From the NCBI RefSeq assembly GCF_006345805.1, contig NC_043005.1, positions 51,894,001 through 51,958,000 on the forward strand: DNA of 64,000 bases. The letters run 5' to 3'. A program made the position numbers and the translations under genes. Origin of the DNA: Octopus sinensis (taxonomy: Eukaryota). The notes below the pieces were generated by a model, which saw nothing but the letters and a program-made list of their open reading frames with translations, was not told where the DNA came from and ran no database searches. Shown piece after piece: positions 3,030-63,130 of the stretch (its first letter is position 1; the number at the start of each line of letters is the position of its first letter).

Positions 3030-3139
3030 CGTGTGTGTATACGTGTGTGGGTGTGTAACTGTGTGTGTGTGCATGCGCATGACTGGATGCATGTAACTTT
3101 CATTTTTGGACAATCAGCTATTGAAGGAAAATGATAATG

Positions 3140-3780
3140 TTATAAGAGATCTCTACTGTAAGGACACAGACACATACCATGGCTTAGATTAAAGATCGTG
3201 CCACCCTTTCTATACTAATAAGAACATCCCATTTAATGTAGCAAAACATACATGTTCAAGAATTACTGACATAATGAAACGAAAGAGACAAATGGTTGAA
3301 CTACAAATAGTTCATCAGGAAATATATCCGCATAGATCAGTAAATTTTACTATAATCAATGCAAAAGTTATGTGAATTTCTGTCCTGTGTCGAAACCCTC
3401 AAAGTGAAGGTGAAGACAAACACAAGAACATAATTATACCATTTGTAGTTTCCCATAATCCTCGAAATGATAGTATGCTACAATTGGCAAAGTGATAATT
3501 TTCAATCTTACACCAATCATTAAATCTCAGAAAAGTAATTAAAGAAACACAAATTATCGACGACTGACGAGAACTATAAAATTTTAAATGACACTTAACA
3601 AAGGTGAAATTCTTACTAGAAGAAGAAGAAATAATGTACATTACGAAATGCGGAGAACTAAATTCTTGCACATGTGAAATAACTGAACTAGGCAAAACCG
3701 GAATGATTCAAGAATGGGAAAGAATTGAAAATTGAAGTTCTAGCCAAAACAAATTTTATAATAAATTGGACTCTAATGTT
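3140..3780 (+). mobile_element. Degenerate Penelope-like element fragment (RT thumb to linker region)
   Basis: Fragments DLYCKDTDT, HPFYTNKNIPFNVAK, IIPFVVSHNPRN and KCGELNSCTCE resemble the PLE post-RT motifs (YxKxTD, HPxxxxxxIP, PFVxxxNP) and the Cys-rich linker. Many stops. Confidence 0.65.
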
Positions 3781-6088: not shown

Positions 6089-6137
6089 TTTCGCTGATGA
6101 AGCAAGTGCGTACCGAAATATCTTGATATCTCGAGAG
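6089..6137 (+). ncRNA. Degenerate hammerhead ribozyme-like motif
   Basis: TTTCG-CTGATGA-agcaagtgcgtacc-GAAA-TATC-tt-GATA-TC-t-CGAGA. Core and stem III are intact, stem II is broken, and there is one extra nucleotide before the 3' strand of stem I. Confidence 0.45.
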
Positions 6138-6255
6138 ATAAAAGTAACGAATAACCTCGGAAATGTCAATTGTATAGCGACGCTTCACCGACTACTAGCC
6201 TGAAATCTTGCAAGCACAATCTACCAGTTACCTTTTGATTGCTACAGCATGCTAA

Positions 6256-6291
<36 letters not shown>

Positions 6292-6424
6292 ATGATGATG
6301 ATGATGATGATGTTGATGATGATCTTATTATATGTGAGTGACTATACCCGTATGTATATATTGCCATAAATATTTCTCTAAAGTCCACTTAGTTCGTATT
6401 CGTAATTAATGTACATATGTATAG

Positions 6425-6575
6425 CTATGTGGTATGAAGCTTGCTTCCCAATCACATGGTTCCGGCTTCAGTCCCACTGCGTGGCACCTTGGGCAAGTGT
6501 CTTTTGCTATAGCGTTGGGCTGACCAAGCCTGGTGAGTGGATTTGGTAGGCAGGAACTGAAAGAAGCCCATCGTA
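6425..6575 (+). mobile_element. SINE family A head
   Basis: GCTTGCTTCCCAATCACATGGTTCCGGCTTCAGTCCCACTGCGTGGCACCTTGGGCAAGTGTC...GAAAGAAGCCCATCG, with a B-box-like motif. Confidence 0.85.
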
Positions 6576-6631
6576 TATATATAATATATATATATATAAT
6601 ATATATATATATATATTATATATATATATAG

Positions 6632-6921
6632 CGAGGTCATTCAACCCTATTATCCTCCCCTAATTTCGCTCTTGCGTCTCACGTTTGATCTTTGACTTCT
6701 GGCCGAAATCATATCGCCATGTTGATTCGCTAGCCTCTGCACGCATATTTTTTTTCTCTCCTTCTTCTGTGTTTTTTCTCTGTGTATCTTTCTGTTGAAG
6801 AGCGTAGGCTCGACGTTAAAGACTTGTTTTATTTATATTTCCTGAGCGCCATACTAATACGATTGTTTGTTTGTATTCCACCTGCCTTCGTCTTTTGTCT
6901 ATTTTCATGAAGCTTCCCGTT
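6632..6921 (+). mobile_element. (TA)n-flanked short element with a hammerhead-like remnant, possibly Penelope-derived
   Basis: Non-repetitive segment of about 290 bp between (TA)n runs inside a SINE. Contains TCTTT-CTGTTGA-A-GAGC-gtag-GCTC-GA-CGTT-AAAGA at 6787-6822. Confidence 0.45.
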
Positions 6922-7721: not shown

Positions 7722-8119
7722 TTATATATATATTATATAAAATCCGTTGTGTCTGTATGTGTGTGTGTCTTCTAGGATCTCGGGTACCCTCCATCCGATT
7801 GCGCTCAAATTTGATATGTAGATACCGACGGTATCAGGGCGTCTATAAGTCTTGAAAAATTACAAAAATTGATTCTAGATGAGAATGCGATCGATAAAGC
7901 CATGGGAACGTGCATTTGTACATGCAATAAGATCCTTTTTTCTTTGGAATAGAAAAACGTCTATCTTTATTTCTTCTTTTGCTGATGTCTCAAATTTAGG
8001 TTAAATCAGTGTTTCTCAAAGGGGAGGCCTATGGGACTGTCGGACAAGTTGTTTTGAGAAAATTTGGTTTAAATGTTTGACAACTCAGCACCGTCCATTG
8101 GACGGAGGGCGTTTTGCTC

Positions 8120-8121
<2 letters not shown>
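7722..8121 (+). mobile_element. Non-autonomous Helitron-like element
   Basis: 5' TATATAAAATCC...(GT)n...CCGATTGCGCTCAAATTTG. A perfect 3' hairpin CCGTCCA-T-TGGACGG at 8091-8105 lies about 11 nt before CTCGT, a one-mismatch CTAGT terminus. Confidence 0.65.
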
Positions 8122-8159
<38 letters not shown>

Positions 8160-12682: not shown

Positions 12683-12748
<66 letters not shown>

Positions 12749-13330
12749 CAGCCGAAATTGCGAAGATGATCTGGTTCTTGACTGATGACTGAGAGCTTCG
12801 AAAGTCCCGTCTGTGTTTTTTTGTCGTCTTCTAAATGTTTCACGTTCTTGTCCCAGTTTGTGTATTTTTTAAACTTTTACATATATATATATATATATAT
12901 AATATATATATATCACGTCAGGCTGGAGATGGGAAAGATGAATTCCCTTTGCGAATACTGACAGGGCACAGAAAGTGTGTCAATAGCCAGCTAGAGGAGA
13001 TGTCTTCCTGGGGCTACAAGCTACAGTAGCATCAATCTCCGTGTGTGTATATATATATATATATTATATTATATATATATATATATATATATATGCTCAT
13101 ATGTATATACATATATATAAGTGTGTGTTTCTGTCTATGTTTGTCCCCACCACCGTTCGACAAGAGGTGTTGGTGTGGTTGCATCTTCATAACCTAGCTG
13201 TTTTGTAAAAGTAACCGATAGATACGTACCAGCTTTAAAAAACATACTAGGGTCGATTCATTCGACTAACAAGTCAACAGGACAGTGCGCCAGCATGGCT
13301 GCCGTCTAATGACTGAAATATGTAAAAGGT
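12548..13330 (+). mobile_element. SINE family A copy interrupted by two nested insertions in its internal microsatellite
   Basis: Head at 12548-12645 and tail at 13120-13330 (TTTGTCCCCACCACC...CCAGCATGGCTGCC...GACTGAAA). Inserts at about 12745-12880 and 12915-13040. Confidence 0.7.
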
Positions 13331-15696
13331 AATCAGATAGAATAGCTATTTAAGCGAAATTAACAGTCTCTGTGTGTTTTTGAATGGCTAGCACGTGTCC
13401 TCCACGCTGTAATCGTTTTACTTTCGTCTCACGGCCTTTGACCAAATCACTCACGTTGAAAGCCTTCCATAGAAAGAAAAGAAGATTTCGTAATTATGTT
13501 TTGGATGGAACAATAATTAAACTTCTTATAAATTGAAACACAATTGCTTTTATCCGGAAACAACTGGAAAACCCGATGTAAGACATACGCCTTTTTGGAA
13601 TGTTTACACGCACGAAGTATGGATGGCACTAAAAATATAAGGCTAACAATGGAAACTTTCCATAGCACACTTGAATTCAAATAAAGGACCATGTCTTAAA
13701 CTGTCACATGGCTTTAACTATAAAGAAAAGGGTGTATAGGGGATTGAATGCACCTTAATATATGACTAGTATTTATGTTATTGTTTGTGGAAATGTAGAA
13801 GGTAAAGACAACGACAGCATTATTTGAACTCTGTGTTATCAATATATATACTGATCACATGATTGTTTGATTGATTGATTCTACGTGTATACTCACTAAT
13901 CATTACTTCACGCGTAATATTGCTTTAAAGTAGATATTTTCCTCTCATACACTCACAGTAACTTTGCAATCAGTGATGGTAAATGGAAATAATTTTTGGA
14001 GAAAATCACAGCCATGAGTACTTTCCTTTTCGCATCCATTATTGAATAGCAATGACAGAATAGAAAGCAAGGTCATGTTGTTGGTGATATCAGTGATTCT
14101 ATTATGGCAAAAGCTGATATGTTAATCATGTGCTTAACAGACCGAAGTGTCGTATTATCAGTACTATTACGATTAGCAAAGGCAACGTGATATCAATGCA
14201 TCGAACGTGGCCTAAAATCGATCGAAACTGGTGTGTTATTTAGTGCTCGCGTTGTGACCCAAACTGAAGTAGTATTAGAGTTTCTATCGGGAGTCAGACT
14301 AAAATGACGAGTGCTTCGATCATGGAGAAGTTGACACGAAAAACCGATTTAACAATGTGAATATAAAACGCATAAAGTATACTTCACGGTTTATGATGCT
14401 AAATAAACTATTTCATACGACCATATCTATTTAGAATTTTGTGAACAACGTCTTTAAAAGCTAAGGTCTACGGTACAAATTAGCGTTAGTCAGCGGTTTG
14501 TCCGGGTGAATTTTTCATTTAACTGTGTAATCACATTTACATACAAATGATACCACTTTCAAAATAACTGAAAAAGGTGAGGTTTGTTATTTGGTGAAGC
14601 ATTTCATTAAGCTACAGGAAAACACGAGGATTGAAGGAGACAAATGGAGGTCTGCATTGAAAACATCGAATTCATCAAAACTAAATAGAAATCGGAACGT
14701 AAGCAGAATAAAATTCAAACGTTGCTGACAGACATTTCGTTGGTGAATAAGATATCATGAATTCATGAGATATCAATGATATAGCGAAACAACGTCCAGG
14801 GAGGATAACACTGACTCTTTGGGGGTCTAAAGGATAAAACATAAATTGTTAGTTTGTGAGACATTGAGTTTATGAAGAAGACTCAGTGAATCATGGCTTT
14901 AACACTGGTCTTTTGTTTAGAGAAACTGTTTAGAAATATACATTGTATTTCCCCGTTAAGCTGAAATATTCATTAGATCTGTACATGAACGATATTAATA
15001 TGTGCAGGATGCTCTTCGCACCACAATGGTGACGGCACTTACTTTGCTCTTCTTGTCAAATATGTATTAGTGGGACAGTAATATGGTACTTAATTAGTAA
15101 CGGAGGTTTGTATGTAGTGGTATGTTAGTAAAGAATGAGTTTTAAACATTATGTATTTTGGGCTGACGTTGCATAATTTCAGCGAAAATTTCTTCGTATT
15201 CTACTAAATGACATTGATTGTAGGCAGGAATTAATAGACAAATGTATAGTAATAATTGTCGCCAAATTTAGGTGCGTATCTTTTACGATGATAATGTGCA
15301 AATAGGCCCCGTACACGACACACTAGGCACAACGTTACGTAAATAGACAACTAGGGCTTTAACGACATTGCTGATTGACGCACATAGATTAAATGTAGTG
15401 AATTCATTTAAATTGTATCTCCAAACACGCCGTATCAATACTTAGTAATTATATATTTCTGTGCATACATATATACGTATTTGTGCTTGTGTGTATGTCT
15501 TGGGATTTATAATTGACTCCCACCATGTTGTTTTGCTTCTGTCCCCTGTAACTGAGTGGTTGGGTAAAATAGAAATAGGATAAAAGTCAGGCTTAAAAGA
15601 TAAGCACTAAAGTCGATTTGTTAGACGCTTGGGTACCATTCAAGCGTACCCTAGCTTCACCTCAGTCCGATGACAGAAGCAAGTAAAAGATAAAAG

Positions 15697-18199: not shown

Positions 18200-19480
18200 T
18201 TTTCTGCCTTCCATGAACAAAAAAACACTATGGTGAAACTTTTAGTTATATTCTGGGATCTTTTCAAATTTGTGGCCAGGACCCCAGATCTTTCTAGTTA
18301 ACTAAATAATTTGAAACTTTGTGTACTCATAGAGTGGAACTAGTTTATTCGCCAGCTGGAACTAGTTTATTTGAGAAAAATCTATTTTATGACTTTAATC
18401 GTAGATTAAAACTGCGAATTTTAACCAATGAGATTGCTTGTTTTCATATCTAAAACGTTACTGCGATCTGTTAGTGTGACGTTGAAAGCAGTTTTGTGAC
18501 GTCTGCTATTTCTAAAAAGCTTTGTGTGTGGTAAAGTAATTTTTTTACTTTACCATATTTTTATAAATATATCGGAGAATCCATATTTTTATAACATATA
18601 TCGGAGAATCCATGTGATTTTTCGTTGTTTTTCTCTTATACGTATGTGAATTATTTCTGAGTATGCATTGTCTGGGAGACTTTTTCTTGCAGTTGAGAAA
18701 TTTTTGGCTGCTATTTCTAAAAAGCTCGGTGTGTGGTTAAGTAATTTTTTTACTTTACCATATTTTTATAAATTAATATATATATATATATATATATATA
18801 ATTTTTTACTCGGTGTATGTGTATATGTATGTCTGCATGTGTGTGTGTATGTATGTGTGTGTGTGTGTGTAAGTATGTGTAAAAAATTACATTGAATCGG
18901 CCATACATACATACATACATACACATACACAGATACACATACATTCAGGCATATACACATACACCGAGTAAAAAATTTCAGTTATCTCTCTCTTTCACAC
19001 ATTACTCTCTCTGTCTCTTCACACACACTAACAGAAGCACTTCACTTACACAACATACTGTCTCCCACACCCCATCAAACACACACACACACACACACAT
19101 GTACATCAATGCTTCCTCTAGACGGTAACTTCAAAGACAAACTTTTGTTATTAGAAGGTGGCTGACTATAGCTTGTTTACATTGTTTAATACGTCACGAA
19201 ATTGGTGGTCGAGACGGAGTAAATAAAATAAAGCCGAATGACGGAATATCATTGGTTAAAATTCTAATTATTAAACAATGTTAAACTTAGAAGTTACAAT
19301 TCCGTTTGCATTCTGGTTTACAATTAAGTTTACTTTTGACACATTCTACCAGTATACGAAGTTTCAAATTGTTTGGTTCAGTAGGAAAAATTTGAAAAAA
19401 CTGGCTTCAGAATAGAAAAGATCCATATTCTGTCTTTCTTATGTATATAGTATAATATTTCACCTATAAAATCAAAAGTA
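18200..19480. mobile_element. Fold-back element with long degenerate inverted arms
   Basis: AATTTGAAACTTTGTGTACT (about 18310) pairs with AGTATACGAAGTTTCAAATT (about 19351). GAATTTTAACCAATGA (about 18416) pairs with TCATTGGTTAAAATTC (about 19249). An inner perfect 28-bp IR spans 18800-18827 / 18950-18977. Confidence 0.6.
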
Positions 19481-21410: not shown

Positions 21411-22317
21411 TAGGGTGTGTTCAAAACTATACGACTTCATTTTTTCCCGCCAATACCAATGCTGCATAGGGAAAAATCATTTGGGTGGTAGGTGATGTTA
21501 CTGTACCCCCACATGCATGAATATTTTCACGCCGGTAAGCAACATCAGTTCCCAGTTGTTCCGCCTAGAACACAGACGTGTGGTGCACGCTCCCTGGATT
21601 TTGTTTTCACCGAACACGCTGAGCAGAGATATTGCATCAAGTTTTGCTAAAAGCTTGCTGATATTCATACTCAAGCCATCCATAAAATTCAGCAGGCCTT
21701 TGTCGATGATGCCATGGGCGAAACTGAGACTAAGGTGTGGTATAACCGCTCCAAACGTGGCAGCACCTCGGTGGAGGGCGAGGCACGCTTAAGCAGGCCA
21801 TCCACAAACAAAGACGAGGAGACGATTGAGAAGGTTCGGCGAATAGTCTTGGAGGACGGTAGTGTAACATTGCAGGAAATTTCTCATGAAGTGGGAATAG
21901 GCACAGGATCAGTGAATTTGAAGCATTTGTGCATCGGAGAGTCTCGGCGGAATTCGTCGCCATGGCGCCGACGGAGCGGCAGAAGTAACTTAGCATGGAA
22001 ATAGCTCAGGACATGCTCGGCTGTGTAAACTACGGCCCTCGCTTTATGAAGGCCATCATTACTGGTGATAAGATATGGGTTTATGATCCCTGCTCTGTGC
22101 GTTCGGTTGTCTTCCCGGAAAACGCAAAAACCGACGTGCGCAAACTACATGTCTGTATTCAAGATGTAGCAGCCAGAAATGTACGAGGCGTACGGACATA
22201 ATATTTAACGCATGCGCACGAAGGGTGTCAGCACCTTCCATCCAAAATATTTTGTCCGCGAGGCATTAGTATTGGCAGGAAACAAAATAAAATCTGATCT
22301 TTTTAAACGCACCTCGT
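21411..22317 (+). mobile_element. Internally deleted mariner element
   Basis: Degenerate inverted ends (GGTGTGTTCAAAA...TTCCCGCCAATACCAATGC / GCATTAGTATTGGCAGGAA...TTTTAAACGCACC). Transposase pieces EQRYCIKFC, RPSTNKDEETIEKVRRIV and IITGDKIWVYD. Confidence 0.82.
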
Positions 22318-22324
22318 GGACATC

Positions 22325-22720
22325 ATAGCACCACCTTTAGCACCACCTTTAGTCGAACAAATCGACCCCAGGACTTATTCTTTGTAAGACTAGTACTTAT
22401 TCTATCCGTTTCTTTAGCCGAACCGCTAAGTTACAGGGACGAAAACACACCAACATCGGTTGTCAAGCGACGGTGGGGGGACAAAGGCAGACGCATAAAC
22501 ATATACACGTGCGCACGCACACACACATACACATACAAACACATACATATAAATACGACTGGCTTCTTTCAGTTTCCATCAACCAAATTCACTCACAAGG
22601 CTTTGATCGGCCCGAGGCTATAGGAGAAGACACTTGCCCAAAATGACGCGCAAGAGGACTGAACCTGGAACCATGTGATTGGTAAGTAAGCAACGTCTGC
22701 GCCTATTAGCCACTCCTGCG
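22325..22720 (-). mobile_element. SINE family A, near full length
   Basis: Reverse complement matches the head and tail of the 36925-37343 copy. Confidence 0.88.
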
Positions 22721-23139
22721 GTGTATATATATATATATATATAATTTGAATTAAGCAGAAAATGGAGAAAACTTTTGATCATCAAACAAATTTACTACCA
22801 TCAGTTGATATTATTAAAAAATACATTAGTAATAACGGCTATTCTTATCCCTTAGCCAGTTATTCCAACCGCTAACTCTACTTACCTATATATAAAATAT
22901 GGGGGTTTAGTCCACAGGTGATCGAAGCAACTAGGTCCTAGGTAAGTGCTGTAACGGATTACTAGAGCTCCGAGGTTATAGCCGAGACGGTAGTTATGGA
23001 AACATTGCAAATTTCCGATAAACCGGATATATAATTCTTAAAGAGGACAGCAAACGTTAAAGACAAGGCAAGTATCCCAAGTCGTATACGTTATTATTAT
23101 TGGGAAAAAAAAATTTCAAAGTCGAAATTCTTGTTTTCC

Positions 23140-29153: not shown

Positions 29154-29762
29154 ATATCAAATACAGAATTGACAACACATCAGAAAGTGGTAAGTGCAGA
29201 ATTTGTGGACAAAATGGTACGCCACTAGCCTAGAAAGAATATAAGAGACGTCATGACAATATTGCAAGGAAATGGTACGAACATAAACCCGAAGGCGTCA
29301 TTGAAAATTATAATGCAAAGATCTTATGGGATTTTATGATTCAGTGCAACCATGAGAAAGAGAATAGGAAACCAGACATAGTGTTAATTTAGAAAGAACG
29401 CAAACGATGCTGATCATAGATATAGCATGTCAAGCTGGCAACAAGGTATGCGATAAATAGGAAAGAAAAGTCGATAGATATGGCAGGTTAGCTTGGGAGT
29501 TTAAGCAGTTGGGATCGATGAAAAAGGTGATAATAGTACCAATAATTTTCGGAAACCTGGGAACAGTGAGTAAAAATCTTGAGAAGTACATGGAACAAAT
29601 AGGGGCTGCAATAAGGGTGGAGCACCTGTAGAAAACGGCACTGCTTGGAATTGCTCGAATAGTCCGGATGGTGCGCGAAAATAAGTGGTGTTACCTACCT
29701 GAGTTTACTGAAAGTGAACAGCTGGTAAGGTAGTACATCACTAGCGTTTGAAGCTGTGCAAA
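29154..29762 (+). mobile_element. Old 5'-truncated R4/Dong-type LINE fragment (restriction-like endonuclease region)
   Basis: KWYEHKPEGVIENYNAKILWDFMIQCNHEKENRKPDIVLI, IIDIA and VPIIFGNLG. Flanked by (TAA)n on both sides, with several stops. Confidence 0.82.
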
Positions 29763-29765
29763 ATA

Positions 29766-29817
<52 letters not shown>

Positions 29818-29838
29818 TAATAATAATAATAATAATAA

Positions 29839-32321
29839 TGGAGAGAAATATGGTCGGCGAACGAACAACCAAAAAAAAGGAGTATCAAAATAACAAACTC
29901 GGCATCTGAACAACTTTGGACCCCCCATAACAACTGAAGAGGTCACCCAGGCACTGCAAAGACTAAGCAACTGGAAGGCACCTGGGCATGACATGATCCC
30001 CAACTTCTGGTTGAAATATCTAACAGGAATGCACAAAAAGCTGGCTGAAAACTTTAACAACATACTAGCAGAGCCAGAGACAATGCCTGAATGGCTCACG
30101 AAGGGGAAAAACCATCTTAATTCCCAAATAAAATGAGACAGCAAAATCAGAAAACTACAGACCAATAACATGCCTCCCTACAATGTTCAAGGCATTTACT
30201 GCAGTGAATCGCAAAGGTTGAACAAGCACCTGTACGAAAACAAACTGTTCCCAGAAGAGCAGAAAGGATGCCGCAAAGGCTCATATGGCTGTAAAGATCA
30301 ACTAATGATTAATAAAGCCATAACTGAAGACAGCCACAGAAAGAAAGAAGAAAGGCCTCAGTATGGCCTGGATTGACTACAAAAAGGCGTTTGATAGCAT
30401 CCCCCACACATGGATCCTCGAAACTCTAGCCATTAACAAAGTAGCACTAACAATCATAAAATTCATAGAGCACTCTATGAATAAATGGCAAACAGTCCTA
30501 CACCTCCAAACAAAAGAGGGACTCATGAAAACCAAAGAGGAATATTCCAGGGAGACACGCTCTCTCCACTCCTTTTCTGCTTGGCACTGTCACCTCTATC
30601 TGATATACTAAATAGAACTGGATGCGGATATAAATGTTACGGCAAAACGATCAGCCACCTTTTATATATGGATGACCTAAAACTATACGCTGCAAATGAC
30701 AAACAGCTGGAAACACTATTAAAGACAGTTCATGGATTTACCAAAGAAATAGATATGAAATTTGGATTAGAAAAATGCGCCAAAGTAACCATGAAAAGAG
30801 GAAAACTAGTTAAGAGTACCAACATCACACTAGATAAAACCAATGAAATAAAAGAATTAGACCAAAGCCAAACTTACTAATACTTAGGAATCCATGAACT
30901 AGATAAGACACAACACACACAAATGAAAGAGAAAATAAAAAAAAGAATATTATAGACGAGTTAGATCAATACTAAAAACAGAGCTCAATGCTAAAAACAA
31001 GATAATAGGTATTAACACTTTAGTTGTCCCAGTTATAAGTTACAGCTACAATATCCTTAACTGGACACGAAATGAACTGACCAAAATAGATAGGAAAACA
31101 AGAAAAATAATGACAGGATCTAGGATGCATCACCCAAAATCTGACATAGAAAGACTATATATACAACGTATAGAAGGTGGTAGAGGCCTTATACAGCTGG
31201 AAAACTACTATAAAATAACCATCATAGGACTGCAAAAATATCTACTTCAGAAGGAAGGAAAACCGATTCAAATAGCGGCAAAACACGAGCAAAACAAAAA
31301 ACTGTTCTCAGTATTTAAGGAAGCTGACAAATACAAACAAGAAATCATACCACCTAATAAATATGAAGAAGAAGAGGAAGATGATGAAGAAACAACAAAA
31401 GCTATAAAACAAATGAAATCCAAACTAAAAACAGAACAGCAACGAACCATGATAAAGCGATGGCAAGAAAAGCCCCTTCATGGTAAATACTGGACTAAAC
31501 TAAACGCAAAAGAAATAGACAAAGAAAAATCCCAGCAATGGTTGAGAAGCTCAGGACTCAAAGCAGAAACAAAGGGATTTTTAATTGCAACACAAGACCA
31601 AATCCTCCCCACCAGAAATTACCAAAAACATGTAATGAAAAGAAATATTACAAGTAATTGCAGAATATGTGGAGGTGGACAAGAAACAATAAATCATATT
31701 ATCTCTAGCTGCCCAGTCCTGGCTAAGAAGGAATATATTCACAGACATGACAGAGTTGGAACCTACATACATTGGAAGCTATGCCAACATTATGGAATAA
31801 CAACAGAAAAAAGATGGTATAGGCACACACCAGAAAAGGTCACAGAAAACGAGAAAGCAACCATACTCTGGGATATGCTGATACACACAGATAGAGAAAT
31901 TAAGGCCAACAGACCAGATATAGTTGTCAGAGATCATGAAGAAAAAAATGCTTTCTAATTGATGTATCAATACCGGCAGATGACAACGTGTCTCTAAAAG
32001 AAATGGAGAAACTCTCATAATACAAAAACCTGGAAATAGAGGTAACTAGAATGTGGAATCTGAAAACAGAAACAATTCCTATCATAGTAGGTGCATTAGA
32101 CATGATAAAAAAATATTCAGACAAATACATAACAAAAACACCAGGACTTACAAACACACATAACATACAGAAAATTGCACTACTAGGCACTGCACACATC
32201 CTACGCAGAACACTTTCCATACAATAACCATCAGAGCATCACAACAAATCACAGCACATACCCAAGGCACACAGAGCTGCGCTCGGTAGTGAAGTGAAAG
32301 CACGCTATAAAACTAAAACTA

Positions 32322-32324: not shown

Positions 32325-32372
<48 letters not shown>

Positions 32373-34302: not shown

Positions 34303-35042
34303 AATCTCCTTTTCTTTGCACGTTGTTTTCACGACCGTTCCTTGCCTGCATTTCCTCCGCTGAATCTATAAGTAGCGACAAGCTTTTTAGCGGCCGGAGA
34401 CTAACTAATTACCTCTTCGTAGTGATATTGTAGCGAGCTATGTAGGGACATAGCGAAAAATTAAAACTGAAATGGTAGCGCTTCTGGCATGTCCGGACAA
34501 GAAGATTACAAGTACCTCTTTCCGTTCTTCGCTCGGTTCTTTACACTTTGATCTTTAAAAGCTATGTAGTGATAGATATCGATGCGGAGCTTGCGTACTG
34601 TTTTTCCAAGTGATGCCAAAAACGTTGAAGGTTTTCATCTGTTTGATGTAAACACGTGTTCGAAATCGAGATTTATTATTGGTCACTGAGGATTTCAAAG
34701 GAATTCGCCTTCTTCGGCTATAGGCAAACTGTCTATGACGTTGATTAGTCCAACATCTGTAGGCAGTGGAAAGAGAAAAAGAACTTCGACATGGTTAATT
34801 TTGTGTTAGTTACACTCGATATTTCACACACACATACACACACACACACATGCATTCTCTCTCTGAATGCGTGCCCATATATATATATATATATATTTAT
34901 ATATAGAGGGCATTATACATACATGCCAGAAGGCATTATACATACATGCCAAACGCTAAGAGGGACAATTAGTCATTTCTACCAAAAATATTACTAATCC
35001 CACCGAATGCAATTTTTCAAAGTAAGACATTTAAAAAAATAT

Positions 35043-35090
35043 AGACCTGTATCACAGTGATTTCATACTTACGTACTCATCAGCAGGCCT
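35043..35090 (-). ncRNA. Minimal type-I hammerhead ribozyme
   Basis: Minus-strand RNA AGGCCUG-CUGAUGA-GUAC-GUAA-GUAU-GAAA-UCAC-U-GUGA-UA-CAGGUCU. It has the full catalytic core, a 7-bp stem I, a 4-bp stem II with a GNRA loop, a near-palindromic stem III and an AUA cleavage triplet. Confidence 0.82.
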
Positions 35091-35295
35091 GAATGTATTA
35101 TAAATAAACAACGACCCTGCCCCGCTTAAGCCGATCAGCTATATATATATATATATATATATATATACGTATACACACAAACAAAACACACACATACATA
35201 CATACATACATACACACACATCCACCCACCCACACACGAAACACATATATGTATATATACATTTATATATACATATTTATATGAAGGTATATACA

Positions 35296-35343
<48 letters not shown>

Positions 35344-35480
35344 CATATATATGTATGTTTTACACATGATATATTGTGTTTGTGTGTGTGTCTATATCTA
35401 AATCTCTATAAATCAATCAATCAATCTATCTATCAATCTTATCTACCTATCTCTCTATCTCCTCTCTCTCCATATATGTA

Positions 35481-35537
<57 letters not shown>

Positions 35538-35538
<1 letters not shown>

Positions 35539-35818
35539 CTTTTAATTGTTTCAGTCATTTGACTACGGCCATGCTGGAGCACCACCATAAGGGGTGTTAG
35601 TTGAACAAATCGGACCCAGGACTTATTCTTTGCAAGCCTGTACTTATTCCATCGGTGTATTTTACCGAACCGTTCAGTTACGGGAATATAAACATACCGT
35701 CATCGGCTGTCAAGCGATGACTGGGGACAAACACAGACACACAGACACCACCACACATACACACACACAAACACACACACACACATACACACACACAACA
35801 CACACACATATATATATC

Positions 35819-35877
<59 letters not shown>

Positions 35878-36043
35878 ATATTATATATATATATATATAT
35901 AAAGGGCTTCTTCCAGTTTCCGTCTACCGAATCCACTCACAAGGATTTTGTCGGCCCGGTTATAACAGAAGACACTTCCCCAAGGTCCCACGCAGTGGAA
36001 CCGAACCTAGAACCATGTGGTTGGCAAGCTTCATACCACACAG
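35538..36043 (-). mobile_element. SINE family A, full length
   Basis: Tail GTTTCAGTCATTTGACTACGGCCATGCTGGAGCACC, internal (CA)/(TA) repeat, head GGGCTTCTTCCAGTTTCCG...AACCATGTGGTTGG. Confidence 0.9.
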
Positions 36044-36450
36044 ATAAGTATTTGCTTGCACCTCGAACCATAATTCTTTATTCCTCACAGCAAACAACTT
36101 TTGAATTTTCATTTACGCCCCTGTCACAGCACAATGTAAACATACCTGACAGAGTAAGTGAGAGAGAAAGAGAGAGAGAACTAGGTTTTATTAGTAAATG
36201 CTGAAAGGGGAATTTGGCTAAACAGTGATTTTCAGAAAGAGAAATCGCCCGGCTAATTCGCACGTTACAAGTACAATCTGTGAGTGGAACAGTAAAAATA
36301 CGCAAAACTTTTCTCAAGTTCCAAATGTGAATTTGTCTGAGCAAATTACACCCCAAAGATGGAACCTTGTATCTTTGTTGGAAACCAGCGTCCCCTCCTC
36401 AGTGGAAGATTTACAATAATTAAAAATTAGAAGAAACATACATACATACA

Positions 36451-36659
36451 GGTGCAGGTGTGACAGTGTGGTAAATAGCTTGCTTCTCAATTACATGGTT
36501 TCGGGTTTAGTTCAACTACGTGGCACTTTGAGCAAGTGTCGTCTACCGTAGCCTCAGGCCGACCAAAGCTTTGTGAGTGGATATGATAGACAGAAACTAA
36601 AACAAGCCTGTCAAATATATATATATATGTGCGTGTGTATGTGCGTGTGCGTGTGTGAG

Positions 36660-36714
<55 letters not shown>

Positions 36715-36905
36715 TTGGGCTTGTGTTTGTCCTCCCATCACCACTTGATAACCGGTGTTCGTGCGTTTACGTCGCGGTAATACTAGAAGTTCAACAAAAG
36801 AATCTGAGGTTATCAAAAATAAGTCCTTGTTCGACTAAAGCCCTTTAAGGCGGTGCTCCAACATGGCCGCAATCAAATGAATGAAAAAGTATGAAGAATA
36901 AAAGA
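36451..36905 (+). mobile_element. SINE family A, full length
   Basis: Head, (GT)n and tail ending GGTGCTCCAACATGGCCGCAATCAAATG. Confidence 0.88.
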
Positions 36906-36924
36906 ACGCATCATACATTCATGC

Positions 36925-37343
36925 ACATAGGAATGGCTGAGTGATAAGTAGCTTGCTTACCAACCACATGATTCCGAGTTTAGTCTCACTGCGTGGCACA
37001 TTGGGCAAGTGTCTTCTACTAACAGTCTCGAGCCGACCAAAGCCTTTTAAGTGGATTTGGTTGACGGAAACTGAAAGAAGCCTGTCATATATGCGTGTGT
37101 GTGTGTGTGTGTGTGTATGTGTGCGCGTATGTTTGTGTGTATGTGTTGTCCCACCAACATCGCCTGACAACCGATGCTGGTGTGTTTAAGTCCCCGTAAC
37201 CTAGTGGTTCGCCAAAAGATACCGATAGAATAATTACTAGGTTTACAAAGAATAAGTCCTGGGGTCGATTTGCTCGACTGAAGGTGGTGCTCCAGCATGG
37301 CCGCAGTCAAATAACTAAAAAAAACCTAAGAATTAAAAAGAAT
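36925..37343 (+). mobile_element. SINE family A, full length, tandem to the previous copy
   Basis: Head AGCTTGCTTACCAACCACATG..., (GT)n, tail ...GGTGCTCCAGCATGGCCGCAGTCAAAT. Confidence 0.9.
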
Positions 37344-37427
37344 ACATATATACTCGAAGAGTTACTTCAGTTTTCCTGGGCGTCACTCTAATAAACATTG
37401 TTTTTTTTCTTATACTTCACCTTCGAT

Positions 37428-37908
37428 GTTCTTTATTACTATTGACTGTGGTTATGCTGGAGCACGGGCGTTTTAGTTGAAGAAATCATCGCCCGGACGT
37501 ATTCTTCGTAAGCTTGGTACTTATTCTATCGGTTCTCTATTGCCGACCCACTAAGTTACGAGAACCTACACACACAAACGTCGGTTGTCAAATGTCGGCG
37601 AGCTGGCAGAAACGTTAGCACGCCGGGCGAAATGCGTAGCCGTATTTCGTCTGTCATTACGTTGTGAGTTCAAATTCCGCCGAGGTCGACTTTGCCTTTC
37701 ATCCTTTCGGGGTCGATAAATTAAGTACCAGTTACGCACTGGGATCGATGTAATTGATTTAATCCGTTTGTCTGTCCTTGTTTGTCCCCTCTGTGTTTAG
37801 CCCCCTGTGAGTAGTAAAGAAATAGGTTGTCAAGCAATGGTGAAGGGACAGACGCAGACACAAACACACACACACACACAAAATATATATATAAAATAAA
37901 TATAAATA

Positions 37909-37988
<80 letters not shown>

Positions 37989-38329
37989 ATGTTGTTATAT
38001 CCTGTTATTTGCATTTGTATTTGTGTAACATTTCTCCGGTTTTTCCGTCCTTGTTTTCGAATACATTCGCTGCCTTTATTGCAAGGAATCTAATGCTCTT
38101 AGATTAGTTTTTCCTTGGGGATAGTCAAATTGGAGCAATCTCGAGTATAATCAGCCGAAATGGCAAAGATGATCTGTAACTCGACTGAGGAAAAAACTCC
38201 GAATGACCTGTCCTTGTTTTCTTTGTATCGTCTGTCTGGATGTTTTGCCTTCTTGTCCCATTTTTGCATTTTTCATATATAAAATTATATCGGTGTACGT
38301 ACAGTTTGGTCTCATATATATATACATAT

Positions 38330-38381
<52 letters not shown>

Positions 38382-38550
38382 TACATACAATATAAAGGGC
38401 TTCTTTAAGTCTCCGTCTACCAAATTCATTCACAAGGCTTTGGATGGCTCGAGGTTACAGTAGAAATTACTTGGCCAAGGTGCCACGCAGTGGGACTGAA
38501 ATCCGAACCATGTGGTTGGGAAGCAAGTTTCTTACCACACAGTCACGCCT
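37428..38550 (-). mobile_element. SINE family A copy hosting nested insertions
   Basis: Tail at 37428-37591 and 37825-37865, head at 38395-38550. Interrupted by SINE B (37592-37824) and a (TA)n-embedded element (about 37985-38313). Confidence 0.82.
37592..37824 (+). mobile_element. tRNA-like SINE family B, full length, with 9-bp TSD
   Basis: A-box-like TGGCAGAAACG, B-box GAGTTCAAATTCC, central GCCTTTCATCCTTTCGGGGTCGATAAATTAAGTACCAG (resembles the Meta-type SINE domain as I recall it). TSD GGTTGTCAA at 37583-37591 and 37825-37833. Confidence 0.9.
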
Positions 38551-38828
38551 ATACATGCATACACGCCCACACACACACACATACACAGAGGCGACTGTGT
38601 TTGCGTGGGATCTGTAGTATCTGTGGAGAGTGAGACAGAGAGAGAGAGAGGAAGAGAAAGAAAGAGAGGGAATGTGAATAGAGCAACTTAGACGTACACT
38701 GATACACAAACACACTCGTACACACAGGCAATTTACTTCTAAATGATCAGTGATAACGATACATACTCATTGCTCTCAGCCTACACAAATACATACATAC
38801 ACACATGTGTATATGTATATATACATTA

Positions 38829-40766: not shown

Positions 40767-41321
40767 TAGAGTGAGAGCAGTGCATACCATCAAAGTGGCA
40801 CTGGGGTAAATTATACGAAGCCCAGTATACTCATCATGACTACCCATTTGATAAGGGTACACTAGACACATGCATCACAACCATGTGTGCGCGACATAGT
40901 GATCTCATATCAAGATAAACGGCATAGGACCTTGCAGGTGGGGCCTAGTTAGAATTTTCTTTTGGTCAAGTAACCCATCCCGCTCAAAAGGTCCTTGAAG
41001 AAAGGTTGTTTAAAGATGTTGAATGAAATACTCATGTTTCCAGAGGTGAATTATCCAAACCTCTAAGAATTCCTTTCAACACATGGCTATGATGCTCCCC
41101 AACTACTTTCGCTCGTGATCAGAGATGCAAATATCGTCAGCCACTAACGGACATGCTCAAATGGTTAAGGTCAAACAATTGACTAGCAAATCTGTGGTAT
41201 TGAGCAGAATATTTGCTGTAGCCCATCTTTTATACCAAGACAAAACAATGTACAAGATAACACTTCGAATCAGTTAAGATCAGGAGCCATGAAAGTCACT
41301 GTCTGGTACTGCATCAGGCAT
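40767..41321. mobile_element. Non-coding interspersed element of about 555 bp flanked by (TTA)n; second partial copy at 42170-42637
   Basis: Two closely similar copies in the window, both ending CATCAGG(G)CAT followed by (TTA)n. No ORF. Confidence 0.7.
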
Positions 41322-41375
41322 TTATTATTATTCTTTATTATTATTATTTATTATTATTAATTATATTATTATTAC

Positions 41376-41900
41376 TTTTTTTTTTCTTCTTTCAAATTTT
41401 CTTCCATTTCTTCCAAGTCTTCCCGACTCCTAGGGCAAAAAACTCATAGTGTATATTGGTAGGCCATTAAACCCAAACTCAGTAGTTCGTTCATTTTTTA
41501 TTATTTTTTTTTTTTAAAGTTAAATTAAAATACATGAGCAGCAACAGTTCTCACATCGACAATGCTCTTCTCAATACGTGTGATGTACCAGTTAAGACAA
41601 TCTTTTGCACTTCTTGCAGGATGGTAAGCCAGGGATCATTCTCATATAATTTCGGTTCCCTTCTTGATCATCCTAGTGCTCCTACGATCACTGGTATGTG
41701 TAACCGCCTTGAGTTCCACATTTTTCTCTCATTTCAATGAGTAGTCTTTATATTTTTCTGAGCTTGTCAAACTCTTTCGATGAGATATTATGATCACAGG
41801 GGATGCTCATGTCGATCAATAAGCAACCTTTATTGTTTTGTGGTCTTTCACAACAATATCGGTTTCGTGTTGGCCTCTTTATGGGGTTCGGGGGCCCGGT
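41376..41900 (-). mobile_element. 3' fragment of a second R4/Dong-type LINE family
   Basis: Minus strand IPVIVGALG...LQEVQKIVLTGTSHVLRRALSM*, then a 3' UTR and an A/(TAA)n tail. Near-identical to 59780-60190. Confidence 0.82.
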
Positions 41901-42834
41901 CCTGGGTGGGCTGTATGTACTGGAAATTTCCCACAGAATGGTTACATTTTCTCCTTCAGTTACACTTCAGGTCTTCAGGGTGGGTCATTATTATTTTTCT
42001 TCATTTTGTTTCTTCTTTCAAAATTTGCTTCCCATTTCTTGCCAAGGGTCTTCCCGACTCCTAGGCAAAGAAACTCATAGTATACATTGGTAGGCCATTA
42101 AACTAAACTCACTAGTTCGTTCATTTAAAAATATTTTTTTTTAAGTTAAATTAAAATACATGCTAGTAATAACACCAGGCACATGTGCATCACAACCATA
42201 GGTGCGGACATGGTGATCATATCAAGATAAACAGCACATGACCTTGCAGGTGGGGGCCCAGTTAGAATTTTCTTCAGGTTAGTAGCCCATCCTGCTCAAA
42301 AGGTCCCTGAATAAGGGGTTGTTTAAGGATGTTGAAAGAACCACCCATGTTTCCAGAGGTGGAATTATTCAAACCCCAAAGAATCCCCTCAACACATGGC
42401 TATGATGCTCCCCCACTACTTCTGCTCGTGATCAGAGATGCACATTCGTCAGCCACTAAGGGACATGCTCACTGGTTAAGGTAAAACAACTGACAAGCAA
42501 ATCTGTGGTATGAGCAGAATATTTTGCTGTAGCCCATCTTTTATACCAAGACAAAACAATGTTACATGTGATAACACTTCCAATCAGTTAAGATCAGGAG
42601 GCCATGAGAGCAATGCCTGGTACTGTATCAGGGCATTTATTATTATTATTATTATTATTAGTTATTATGATGATTATTATTATTATTATTATTCTATTTC
42701 TCTTCTTCTTTCTTCTTCTTCTCTTCTTTTCTTTCTTCTTCTCTCTTCTCTTCTTTTTCTTCTTCTTCTTCTTCTTCTTCTTCTTCTTCTTCTTCCTTCG
42801 TTTTCTCCCTCCATGCTGTACCTTTTACTTATTG

Positions 42835-45347: not shown

Positions 45348-45500
45348 GTATTTGCAAAGGGAGGATGACCTCCCTTTGCAAATACCGATAGGGCACAGAA
45401 AGTGTGCCTATAGCCAGCTGGAGGAGATGTTCTCCTGGGGCTACAAGCTACAGTAACATCCACCCTTAGTGGTTCGCCATATTGAGATGGCAAATATATC
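45348..45500. repeat. Structured interspersed repeat, second copy at about 12930-13040
   Basis: Shared CCCTTTGC.AATAC.GA.AGGGCACAGAAAGTGTG...TAGCCAGCT.GAGGAGATGT...CCTGGGGCTACAAGCTACAGTA.CATC. Confidence 0.75.
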
Positions 45501-50787: not shown

Positions 50788-51525
50788 CTACAAGGGGTGT
50801 TCGTTAGAGACTTCCCCTGACCCACTTCCCAAGAGCTGGGATAAACGAAACTTGGCATAATTATCAATCCTTCTCTACATAGCCAACACCAATGCTGACA
50901 CACTTCCCCCATTGTTTTATGCAGCTATGAAGACCTCATATGTAGATATCGGTAGGTTGCGTCTGTGGCAAAGACCTTACCTAGGAAATAAGTTCTTCAT
51001 CATCCAAAAAGTGCTTCCCATTCAAAAAGATTACATGGTTGGTAAGAGGTGGCAGTCAGATGGTACAAGTCTGGGAGAGTAAGGGGGATGTGGAAGGATT
51101 TCAGATTCGCAGGAGAGTACTTTCATCTGGGCGGGCAACATGCGCATTGTGAACTGGGGTGTTGTCTTGGAGGAAGCGTTCTCCTTTGGTCAGCATGCTA
51201 TGCCTCTCTGCTTCGATAGCTTACCGCAATTTCTATAGCAGAGAAACATAATATGCCCCGTTAATTGTGGTGCCCTTTGTCAGAGCACCACCTTGCCTGC
51301 TGAGGGTTGGATACAAGCCTTCCTTGGAGGTGATGAGTTATCATGCTTCCATTGCTTCGGCTGGACTTTAATGTCTGGATCACAGTGATGGACACATTAC
51401 TCATCCTGTGTGATAAGTCTGACAAAAAAGTCCTCCTCTTCTTGGCACATTGCCAAAAGAGCCTGGTAGCAATTGAATCATTTCTGCTTCTGCAAAAGTG
51501 TGGTTGGTAAGCCACGCAAACACTC
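50788..51525 (-). mobile_element. Mariner remnant (C-terminal transposase plus one TIR)
   Basis: Minus strand QDNTPVHNAHVA and ILPHPPYSPDLVPSDCHL. TIR-like TACAAGGGGTGTTC at the left end. Confidence 0.82.
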
Positions 51526-51847: not shown

Positions 51848-52207
51848 TACATGGCTGTGTATATGCATATACATAGTGTTCAGGGTTCAGTCCCACTGCG
51901 TGGTAACTCGGGCATCTTCTACTAAGGATTGTGAAGGAATTTGGTAGATGGAAACTGAAAGAAGCCCATCGTGTATATGCGTGTGAGTGTGTGTCTACGT
52001 GTGTATTGTCTTTGTGTCTGTGTTTGTCCCCCATCACCGTTTTACAACCGGTATTGGTGGGTTTACGTCCTCGTAAAATAGCGTTTCGGCAAAAGAAATG
52101 GTAGAATAAGTACCGAGCTTATAAAAGTCAGAAGTACTGGGTCAATTCTTTTGGCTATAAATCCAAGACGGTGCTCCAGCAAGGCAGTAGTCTAATGACT
52201 GAAACAA

Positions 52208-52209
<2 letters not shown>
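51848..52209 (+). mobile_element. SINE family A, diverged
   Basis: GGGTTCAGTCCCACTGCGTGG...GAAAGAAGCCCATCG...GGTGCTCCAGC...GACTGAAACAAG. Confidence 0.85.
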
Positions 52210-54201: not shown

Positions 54202-54400
54202 ACCTCTCCTCCTCCTTTTCTCTTTTCTTGCCTCTGATTCTTTGGTCTACTCTTCCCCCACTCTCTCACATTTCTCTGTCTTTCTCACTTTGCACCTCAC
54301 TGATTCTGTCGCCAAGCCAATCCTTGGCACGCTCTCTTTCTTCTCCTCTCTTTAATTCCTTCTTTCTCTCTCTTCTCCCCCCTTTGGTGCCTTCGTCCCT

Positions 54401-54431
<31 letters not shown>

Positions 54432-54640
54432 ACCTCTCCTCCTCCATTTCTCTTTTCTTGCCTCTGATTCTTTGGTCTACTCTTCCCCCACTCTCTCACA
54501 TTTCTCTGTCTTTCTCACTTTGCACCTCACTGATTCTGTCGCCAAGCCAATCCTTGGCACGCTCTCTTTCTTCTCCTCTCTTTAATTCCTTCTTTCTCTC
54601 TCTTCTCCCCCCTTTGGTGCCTTCGTCCCTCTTTTTCTCT
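54181..54640. repeat. Near-perfect 230-bp tandem duplication of a pyrimidine-rich segment
   Basis: TACCTCTCCTCC... starts at both 54201 and 54431. The copies are almost identical and are bounded by (CT)n. Confidence 0.92.
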
Positions 54641-58600: not shown

Positions 58601-59779
58601 TGAGACAGGTTTTAAAATCAGATTTGCAATGTGAAGCAACCAAATGTCGCATGTCGTTGCGTCCAGTCACGTCAAACATGTAATTTTCGGCTTAGAATGC
58701 CAATTTTTTAATCGCAAAAAAAAAAACTGATTAAAAATAAAACCAAGAAGCATTTAGTAATTATATATATATATATTTATATATATATATATATATATAC
58801 ACACATCATCTTCAGTATATTGCTTCTCTGTGTTTCAGTGTTGGGTGGGAATTTTGTAGTAAAAGGCAAATAAATTAAACTGAATACAAACGGATTTCAA
58901 TCCAGACGAAAAGTCTTATCAAAAGCATCTCAAAAAATATATGTATGCGGAAATTTTATTTGAAAAATATAACTAATATTACATTTTTGAAAACATTAAT
59001 AAATATAATGAATATCTGACAAACAATCTATTGTGTTTAATATTTGTATATTTGGTCTAAAGGCGAAACCGCAATTTAAGATAACATCTTCGTTAATTAA
59101 GAGATGAAAGGGTTAACTGATTGACAACAACATATTTGGTCTCACGTCAGCCATGATAATTGAAAGATTAATCGGAAAATCAAGTCCAAAGATCAAAGTC
59201 GTTATCAAAGGTTTCATCCACTGATACTTTAGGATATATCATCTTACATCTTTAAACAGTAACCAATAGTGACAGACAAGGTTGCATCTTTTGTGCGAGG
59301 GCGAGTAGAAGACTGACCAAATGACCCTCCTCCGCTTTCACCCCCACCCCACTCAACAGCATCCGTTGACTACTTTGATACATCGGTGTTTCTGATTTCA
59401 AATCCTGTCGTGGCGTACTTTATATATTTTTACATTAAGAACAAAAATTTCGCACTTTGAAAAAGAAATCGGAGACAGCTATGGTTGCGATCGTTTTGAT
59501 CGAGTAGGCAGAAATATGATCAAAAGACGTTCCAGCTTTGTCCATTCCATCTTCTTTTCTTCAACCACATAATTCAGTATGTATCTCCCATTTTAAGAAG
59601 AATTTAGGAAGAATTGCCTGCTATTTTAACAGACAACGAAAATGTAGCGGCTTCCTTAGTAGCTCATAACTGGTACAGTAGTAGTAGTAGTAGTAGTAGC
59701 AGCAGCAGCAGCAGCAGCAACAGTATTAGTGGTGTTTGTGGTGGTGGTGGTGGTAGTATTAGTATTAATATTATTATTA

Positions 59780-60287
<508 letters not shown>

Positions 60288-62855: not shown

Positions 62856-62924
62856 TTATCTGTATGTATATGTATATTTATATATGAAGGTATGTATACG
62901 CACACACACACAGGCACATATATA

Positions 62925-63090
62925 TTCGACAGGCTTATTTCAGTTTTCGTCTACCAAATCCACTCACTCGATTTTGGTCGACCCGAAGCCATAGTAGAAG
63001 ACATTTGCGCAAGGTGCCACACAGTGGGACTGAACCCGGAACTATGTGGTTGGTAAGCAAGCTACTCCTACGCTTATGAGCCACTCCTGT
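62925..63090 (-). mobile_element. SINE family A head
   Basis: CAGTTTTCGTCTACCAAATCCACTCAC...GTGGGACTGAACCCGGAACTATGTGGTTGG. Confidence 0.85.

Positions 63091-63130
<40 letters not shown>

Follow-up and report, generated by a model that had tools for sequence, protein, structure and literature searches.

A hammerhead-bearing insert between (TA)n tracts of the Octopus sinensis genome, probably the truncated 3' end of a Penelope-like retrotransposon

Among Penelope-like retrotransposons (PLEs), the Hydra clade combines a (TA)n preference with a hammerhead ribozyme. In the published account of the clade, this preference was recorded for 26 of the 27 families, among them Hydra-1_Obim from Octopus bimaculoides (Craig 2021, PMC8557442). 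According to Files S1 and S2 of that work, helix III is palindromic and 9-10 nt long in all 25 families; helix II does not exceed 4 bp in 17 of the 25, loop 2 has 4 nt in 17, and N17 is A in 11 (PMC8557442). The distance from cut site to 3' end is 29-152 nt in 23 of the 25 families (87-152 nt in 11), and position 10.1/11.1, counted by eye, is G.U in 2 and U.U in 14 (PMC8557442). Most PLE insertions have been described as 5'-truncated with one terminal repeat kept (Li et al. 2026, 10.64898/2026.07.22.740005; PMC8557442), and PLE hammerheads as mostly single motifs (PMC4209133).

Non-LTR retrozymes are thought to derive from PLE pseudo-LTRs (pLTRs) and to use PLE proteins, and solo monomers have been described (PMC7229834; 10.64898/2026.07.22.740005). 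Canonical metazoan hammerheads have been documented with 6 bp in helix I, 4 bp in helix II and 1-2 bp in helix III (PMC4209133). The Poseidon element PAc of Anolis, the one PLE to have been reconstituted in vitro, cuts AT-rich DNA, and cleavage by its ribozyme is dispensable for insertion (Frangieh 2024, PMC11167929); its reverse transcription starts at two adjacent stem-loop sites ~85-92 nt downstream of the hammerhead cut (PMC11167929). In the literature on cephalopod hammerhead elements, we found only the study of Craig 2021 (PMC8557442) and one twister paper; Repbase/Dfam, several supplements and the O. vulgaris repeat library may already list the family described here.

We analyzed a 64-kb stretch of Octopus sinensis DNA (64,000 nucleotides, hereafter the window), which is AT-rich and contains 171 tandem-repeat rows and many interspersed repeats. 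The insert occupies positions 34906-35139, with its RNA on the minus strand, and is 234 bp long, 37% GC and non-coding, no stop-free frame wholly within it exceeding 28 codons. (TA)n directly adjoins this one copy at both borders. On the 3' side of the RNA strand, the tract at 34877-34905 was reported by TRF with period 2, 14.5 copies of AT and one T substitution; on the 5' side, a (TA)14 tract spans 35140-35167 (period 2, 14 copies, 100%). These tracts are the likely target, and a target-site duplication would be indistinguishable inside them. The clean TA borders point to insertion.

A sequence-only reading of the window had placed a 235-bp element at 34906-35140. The results supported a TA-embedded, ORF-less segment but not its last base, T35140, which is part of the TA tract and lies outside the insert. 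The same reading had set the ribozyme in a short segment with (TA)n on both sides, and the sequence and TRF confirmed both borders. It had also reported other short segments within (TA)n; we counted 11 TA-flanked complex segments of 100-500 bp in the window, showing that such segments are common, but at only 1081 of 56974 random window sites (1.9%) was TA as close on both sides as it is for the ribozyme.

The type I hammerhead ribozyme sequence lies at 35043-35090 on the minus strand. It was the sole match to a strict descriptor in the window, compared with none in 1000 dinucleotide-shuffled windows, and self-cleavage is predicted. Rfam gave no match at gathering score over the whole window and no hammerhead among the 45 matches at E<=10 within 34500-35500; therefore, the hammerhead call rests on the descriptor. 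Helix I has 7 bp (35090-35084 with 35049-35043) and is followed by the core CUGAUGA (35083-35077), by helix II (35076-35065; 4 bp, GUAA loop, G.U at 10.1/11.1 at its base), by GAA (35064-35062) and by helix III (35061-35051), an 11-nt palindrome with arms of 5+5 about a 1-nt centre (4-5 bp). All core positions are intact, and the descriptor predicts the cut after A35050 of the AUA triplet. Decay of a CpG is not needed to account for the G.U pair, which occurs in Hydra families, and the CpG observed/expected ratio is 0.80. In this ribozyme, the known loop contact could come from the U at 1.7 and the GNRA loop, although U1.7 is paired with A2.7 here, a pairing reported to lower the rate of an engineered hammerhead (PMC11875169).

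Folding of the monomer showed helices I and II pairing with p 0.72-1.0 and helix III with p 0.02. The helix III 5' arm paired with core positions U4-U7 (p 0.87-0.96), and this fold lay 3 kcal/mol below the hammerhead fold. The minimum free energy fold of the homodimer was a double hammerhead with helix III at p 0.81-0.91; its -30.5 kcal/mol against 2 x -12.4 kcal/mol is a gain of the kind that any palindrome would be expected to show. Both folds describe secondary structure only, tertiary contacts being outside the model. The ribozyme is predicted to be core-blocked as a monomer and active only as a double hammerhead formed via the 11-nt palindrome, which matches the dimeric cleavage described for tandem PLE transcripts (PMC4209133, PMC6765202). 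Given this predicted monomer block and dimer fold, the solo copy at 34906-35139 is likely inert.

The 3' end of the insert on the minus strand is a tandem duplication (34906-34951). The 20-bp direct repeat GGCATTATACATACATGCCA noticed in the sequence-only reading is indeed exact, at 34909-34928 and 34932-34951, and sits within a head-to-tail 23-bp unit (34906-34928 and 34929-34951) whose two copies are 22/23 identical. The GGCAT/ATGCC hairpin proposed for each copy also forms on folding, with a 5-bp stem and a 9-nt loop at -5.3 kcal/mol, a stability that is not unusual for a single copy, as 15 of 200 shuffles folded equally well. By analogy with PAc, this duplicated hairpin is possibly the reverse transcription start or 'tail' region (PMC11167929). 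PAc differs in belonging to another clade and in having an AC-rich stem-loop in the ORF start, while the hairpin of the insert, for which we infer such a role, lies 121-144 nt downstream of the cut (PMC11167929).

Compared with Hydra elements, the insert has the same (TA)n site and a sense canonical hammerhead within ~150 nt of the 3' end, the cut site lying 144 nt from that end, or 121 nt counting one repeat. It also shares a short helix II with a 4-nt loop, often with U at 11.1, and a helix III that is palindromic about a centre of 1-2 nt. The resemblance to a Hydra 3' end seen so far is thus one of architecture. Its helix III of 11 nt is one pair longer than in all 25 Hydra families, and, unlike Hydra elements, the insert has no ORF. 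The duplicated 23-nt terminal hairpin was absent from the published consensi compared; by eye, Hydra-2_Amil, one of six consensi, likewise has a small GGC..GCC hairpin at its end, with CTC and TA after it, and the 3' end of Hydra-1_Obim differs from the insert (PMC8557442). A short-motif search for five motifs of the insert found none of them in the Craig 2021 supplement (PMC8557442), and two motifs of published octopus PLEs were absent from the 64-kb window.

We judge the chance to be slightly better than even that the insert is the 5'-truncated 3' end (3'UTR/pLTR), or solo pseudo-LTR, of a PLE, with the Hydra clade as the most likely parent. This assignment is favored because the intact hammerhead is beyond chance, TA stands at both borders, no ORF is present, and the predicted monomer block and dimer fold suit it. 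It is favored as well because the Hydra (TA)n preference, the palindromic form of helix III, helix II and loop 2, N17 and cut-site position match, because PLE insertions are mostly 5'-truncated and PLE hammerheads mostly single, and because the minimal PLE hammerheads of molluscs have a different layout (PMC4209133). Against it, the 7-bp helix I, the 4-bp helix II, the GNRA loop and the U at 1.7 are compatible with canonical retrozyme-type hammerheads as well; the motif searches and comparisons by eye link the insert to no Hydra element, and the single ORF remnant of a PLE in the window belongs to another clade. One copy, moreover, fits truncation and a fixed 5' end alike.

If the insert is such a truncated end, a tandem parent elsewhere in the genome would have been transcribed, and the RT/GIY-YIG protein of that parent would have introduced a nick into (TA)n, from which reverse transcription was primed close to the 3' hairpin of the RNA. 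A restart or slip at this hairpin possibly doubled the 23-nt unit. Synthesis would then have ended 49 nt beyond the ribozyme, so that no ORF was copied; this upstream stretch at the 5' border (35091-35139, minus strand), which holds no ORF remnant in its sequence, contains the likely truncation point. The double hammerhead could form between two copies in a tandem transcript, whereas the solo copy would be a likely dead passenger. The sequence-only reading had proposed a microsatellite-targeted, ribozyme-bearing system driven in trans by Penelope-like proteins. A likely (TA)n target and a likely origin through PLE RT/GIY-YIG proteins survive from that proposal, but a separate non-autonomous system is not needed, because a TA target, a hammerhead and PLE machinery together make up the published anatomy of Hydra 3' ends (PMC8557442). 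The insert is likely ordinary for such a genome rather than a new system.

A lesser but substantial possibility is a dedicated non-autonomous family, in which the insert would be a fixed-length ribozyme element, or a solo non-LTR retrozyme monomer, copied in trans by PLE proteins into (TA)n. The insert resembles metazoan non-LTR retrozymes in being small, non-coding and AT-rich with a type I hammerhead of canonical size (PMC7229834; 10.64898/2026.07.22.740005). With 234 bp and 37% GC it lies within their usual bounds (units of ~150-450 bp, non-coding, GC <50%), and its length fits the coral retrozyme units of 220-240 bp, for which a 20-nt indel variant is described (PMC7229834). The sizes of helices I and II are canonical (PMC4209133). 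Dispersed monomers and descent from PLE pLTRs have been reported for retrozyme families (Li et al. 2026, 10.64898/2026.07.22.740005), and non-autonomous PLE derivatives occur in Chlamys (PMC8557442). A weak terminal redundancy would suit a more-than-unit copy: 35084-35106, just upstream of the hammerhead core, is 18/23 identical to 34922-34944 in the terminal repeat, which, if real, would define a 162-nt redundant unit. When both repeat units were included, 25-85 of 3000 shuffles reached this identity; with one unit, 412-766 of 3000 did.

Several results weigh against such a family. The insert is non-tandem, contains one ribozyme and has no second copy in 64 kb, and its helix III is longer than in retrozymes. 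A rod-like fold, considered as a sign of circular RNA, was rejected: its z of -2.4 to -2.9 depends on the duplication, and z fell to -1.3 without the repeat (6 of 60 shuffles as good) and to -1.2 as a circle with one repeat. The monomer is predicted to be blocked and inactive, unlike the ribozymes of coral and mussel retrozymes (PMC7229834), and a (TA)n bias is not among the retrozyme features described in the consulted parts of two reports (PMC7229834; 10.64898/2026.07.22.740005). The retrozyme-like membership suggested by the sequence-only reading was thus not upheld, there being no tandem units, a single ribozyme and no significant circular fold once the repeat is removed.

Searches for relatives of the insert gave the same picture of a single copy in the window. 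With blastn, the insert matched itself only (next best E 0.14), and a covariance model built from the single ribozyme gave a next best E of 1 in the window. Local alignment of the insert to 19 other segments exceeded the shuffle maximum of the segment in none of the 19, indicating that the TA-bounded segments are unrelated families and not one system, contrary to the earlier suggestion that they belong with the insert. The exact core pattern was found in no GTDB contig, and phages and plasmids gave no match, a blank that is expected of these prokaryotic-side collections and is silent on the host genome. A 30-residue frame at the hairpin end had three weak matches among 1.84 billion protein representatives, all of them repetitive translations and none a copy.

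Hammerhead remnants had been claimed for some of the other TA-bounded segments, and one of them held. At 6787-6822 on the plus strand there is a minimal, decayed hammerhead of the PLE type, which has an additional nucleotide after A9 and no real helix III; the post hoc descriptor for this type gave one real match, compared with one in 500 shuffled windows. In a decay-tolerant scan, the candidates at 12782, 38200, 6094, 53045 and 58039 were not above chance. The second match of that scan, at 58815, was a TA-tract artefact, and the remaining matches were near chance. The motif at 6787-6822 lies in a TA-bounded 290-bp segment (6631-6920, plus strand) that is unrelated to the insert, and its layout is that of mollusc minimal hammerheads as given in a supplement (PMC4209133). 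The segment at 6631-6920 is likely the 3' stub of a PLE family different from that of the insert.

Some further hammerhead-like sites were observed in the window. A TA-ended family with two copies, 76% identical (12745-12880 and 38150-38273, the latter part of a longer copy at 37986-38313), has a CUGAnGA...GAA-like spacing and no helix I pairing, and is a possible PLE stub family. At 6089-6140 on the plus strand, ~130 nt upstream of (ATG)n, lies a core resembling that of a hammerhead, in which helix II is broken and helix III forms a 5+2+5 palindrome; it was missed by the scans and is possibly another decayed Hydra-type motif. A 14/15 match at 51375 was rejected; it lies in an apparent mariner remnant and has no core upstream.

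It is improbable that the insert is the 3' stub of a PLE outside the Hydra clade, from Neptune, Nematis or Naiad, such as the family that left the ORF remnant in the window. This remnant, claimed earlier at 3140-3780, is real and spans 3097-3759 on the plus strand, where tblastn and a PLE profile identify a dead ORF fragment covering the RT thumb and Cys linker and stopping before the GIY-YIG core. Ten PLE-type RT proteins matched it at 34-42% identity (best E 1.7e-38); eight of them have a GIY-YIG domain listed, and the named ones are from the bivalves Mytilus and Saccostrea. The remnant was also the sole significant PLE-profile match in the window; a PLE alignment searched against GTDB contigs gave 46 pattern matches, none confirmed. 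Relatives of the remnant carry DKG and a CX4CxxC linker, the pattern described for Neptune/Nematis, as opposed to RWK, DKT and CxCX5C in Hydra (PMC8557442). By the motifs of these relatives, the remnant is a dead, Neptune/Nematis-like PLE, and its presence shows that PLEs have colonized the host genome. A role of the remnant as partner or driver of the insert is not supported: it lies 31 kb away, is broken by several stops, is without the GIY-YIG core and has relatives with Neptune/Nematis motifs.

The presence of this remnant speaks for an other-clade origin, as does the report that Neptune and Naiad also favor microsatellites, with cephalopod Naiads listed in (TA)n (PMC8557442). The hammerhead speaks against it. 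Hammerheads of Neptune, Poseidon and mollusc PLEs are described as minimal, and Naiads as having no canonical hammerheads (PMC4209133; PMC8557442). The minimal motifs of Penelope/Poseidon and Neptune are dispersed single motifs from truncated PLEs that work as dimers via a palindromic helix III (PMC4209133), in which the insert, as predicted here, would resemble them. They differ in an extra nucleotide after A9, between 9 and 10.1, in a longer helix II and in having almost no helix III, none of which the insert shows (PMC4209133).

We consider it very unlikely that the insertion was made by a non-PLE microsatellite-targeting LINE, or that the insert is a Helitron-like fragment holding the ribozyme by chance. 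A large non-LTR retrotransposon fragment with RVT_1 and zf-RVT matches and ~50% identity to many marine invertebrate proteins lies at 29840-32320 on the plus strand, 2.5 kb from the insert, with further pieces at 40859-41775, 42004-42632 and 59785-60243. This element, which we take to be Dong/R4-like from its appearance, has (AAT)n on either side (29762-29839 and 32325-32372) and would make up a second microsatellite-targeted system; a search with the LINE ORF gave no close relative with a name. It lies in (AAT)n, as opposed to (TA)n, and has no sequence in common with the insert. Between TA tracts at 7734-8122 there is a 389-bp piece with a GC-rich hairpin near its right end, presumably Helitron-like as judged by eye. 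Helitrons end in 5' TC and in 3' CTRR with a subterminal hairpin, and these ends were absent on either strand of the insert, which also has no poly-A or tandem tail and no tRNA head; a tRNA scan found none. A single-copy regulatory ribozyme retained by the host, or a chance motif, is the least credible origin: the hammerhead is single-copy in the window with an intact core, but chance is excluded by 0 of 1000 shuffled windows, the clean TA borders indicate insertion, and no host exon was found nearby, with none at the Pfam cut-off in the 150 of 166 candidate frames scanned.

Other repeats were observed in the window. SINE-like families with copies 70-86% identical occur at 1256-1704, 6405-6573, 13125-13337, 22353-22721, 35535-36046, 36456-37592, 38390-38552, 51871-52209 and 62918-63092; these copies often abut or are interrupted by microsatellites and explain some TA-bounded segments, and a search with a SINE frame gave no match. 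Tc1/mariner transposase remnants lie at 2022-2900 (Pfam HTH_Tnp_Tc3_2), 21651-22001 (weak HTH_48) and, by eye, ~50900-51500. A 97-bp repeat with two copies, 89% identical, is found at 12937-13033, between TA tracts, and at 45364-45460. Near-perfect local duplications, recent or assembly-related, lie at 54202-54634 (203 bp, 99.5%) and 18503-18773 (66 bp, 95%).

Read as the truncated end of a PLE, the insert contributes a single unlisted family to a clade already described and carries little weight beyond repeat annotation. Hammerhead architecture alone nevertheless seems able to place ORF-less stubs in a PLE clade, with a Hydra-like and a minimal type in this window. The predicted fold, off as a monomer and on as a dimer, bears on the reason why PLEs retain these ribozymes (PMC8557442, PMC11167929). 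A bolder proposal, which we consider rather unlikely, is that the insert is a non-autonomous partner of Hydra PLEs, of fixed length, dispersed and targeted to (TA)n, that is undescribed in cephalopods. Its hammerhead would be kept off in the monomer by core pairing with the helix III arm and turned on where two RNAs join at the 11-nt palindrome, and the hairpin would mark the start for the PLE reverse transcriptase. Such a partner, if real, would stand between the pseudo-LTRs of PLEs and tandem retrozymes as an intermediate resembling a SINE. If its copies have fixed ends, the insert would link pLTRs and retrozymes and would be a natural 234-nt minimal template for (TA)n-specific PLE insertion.
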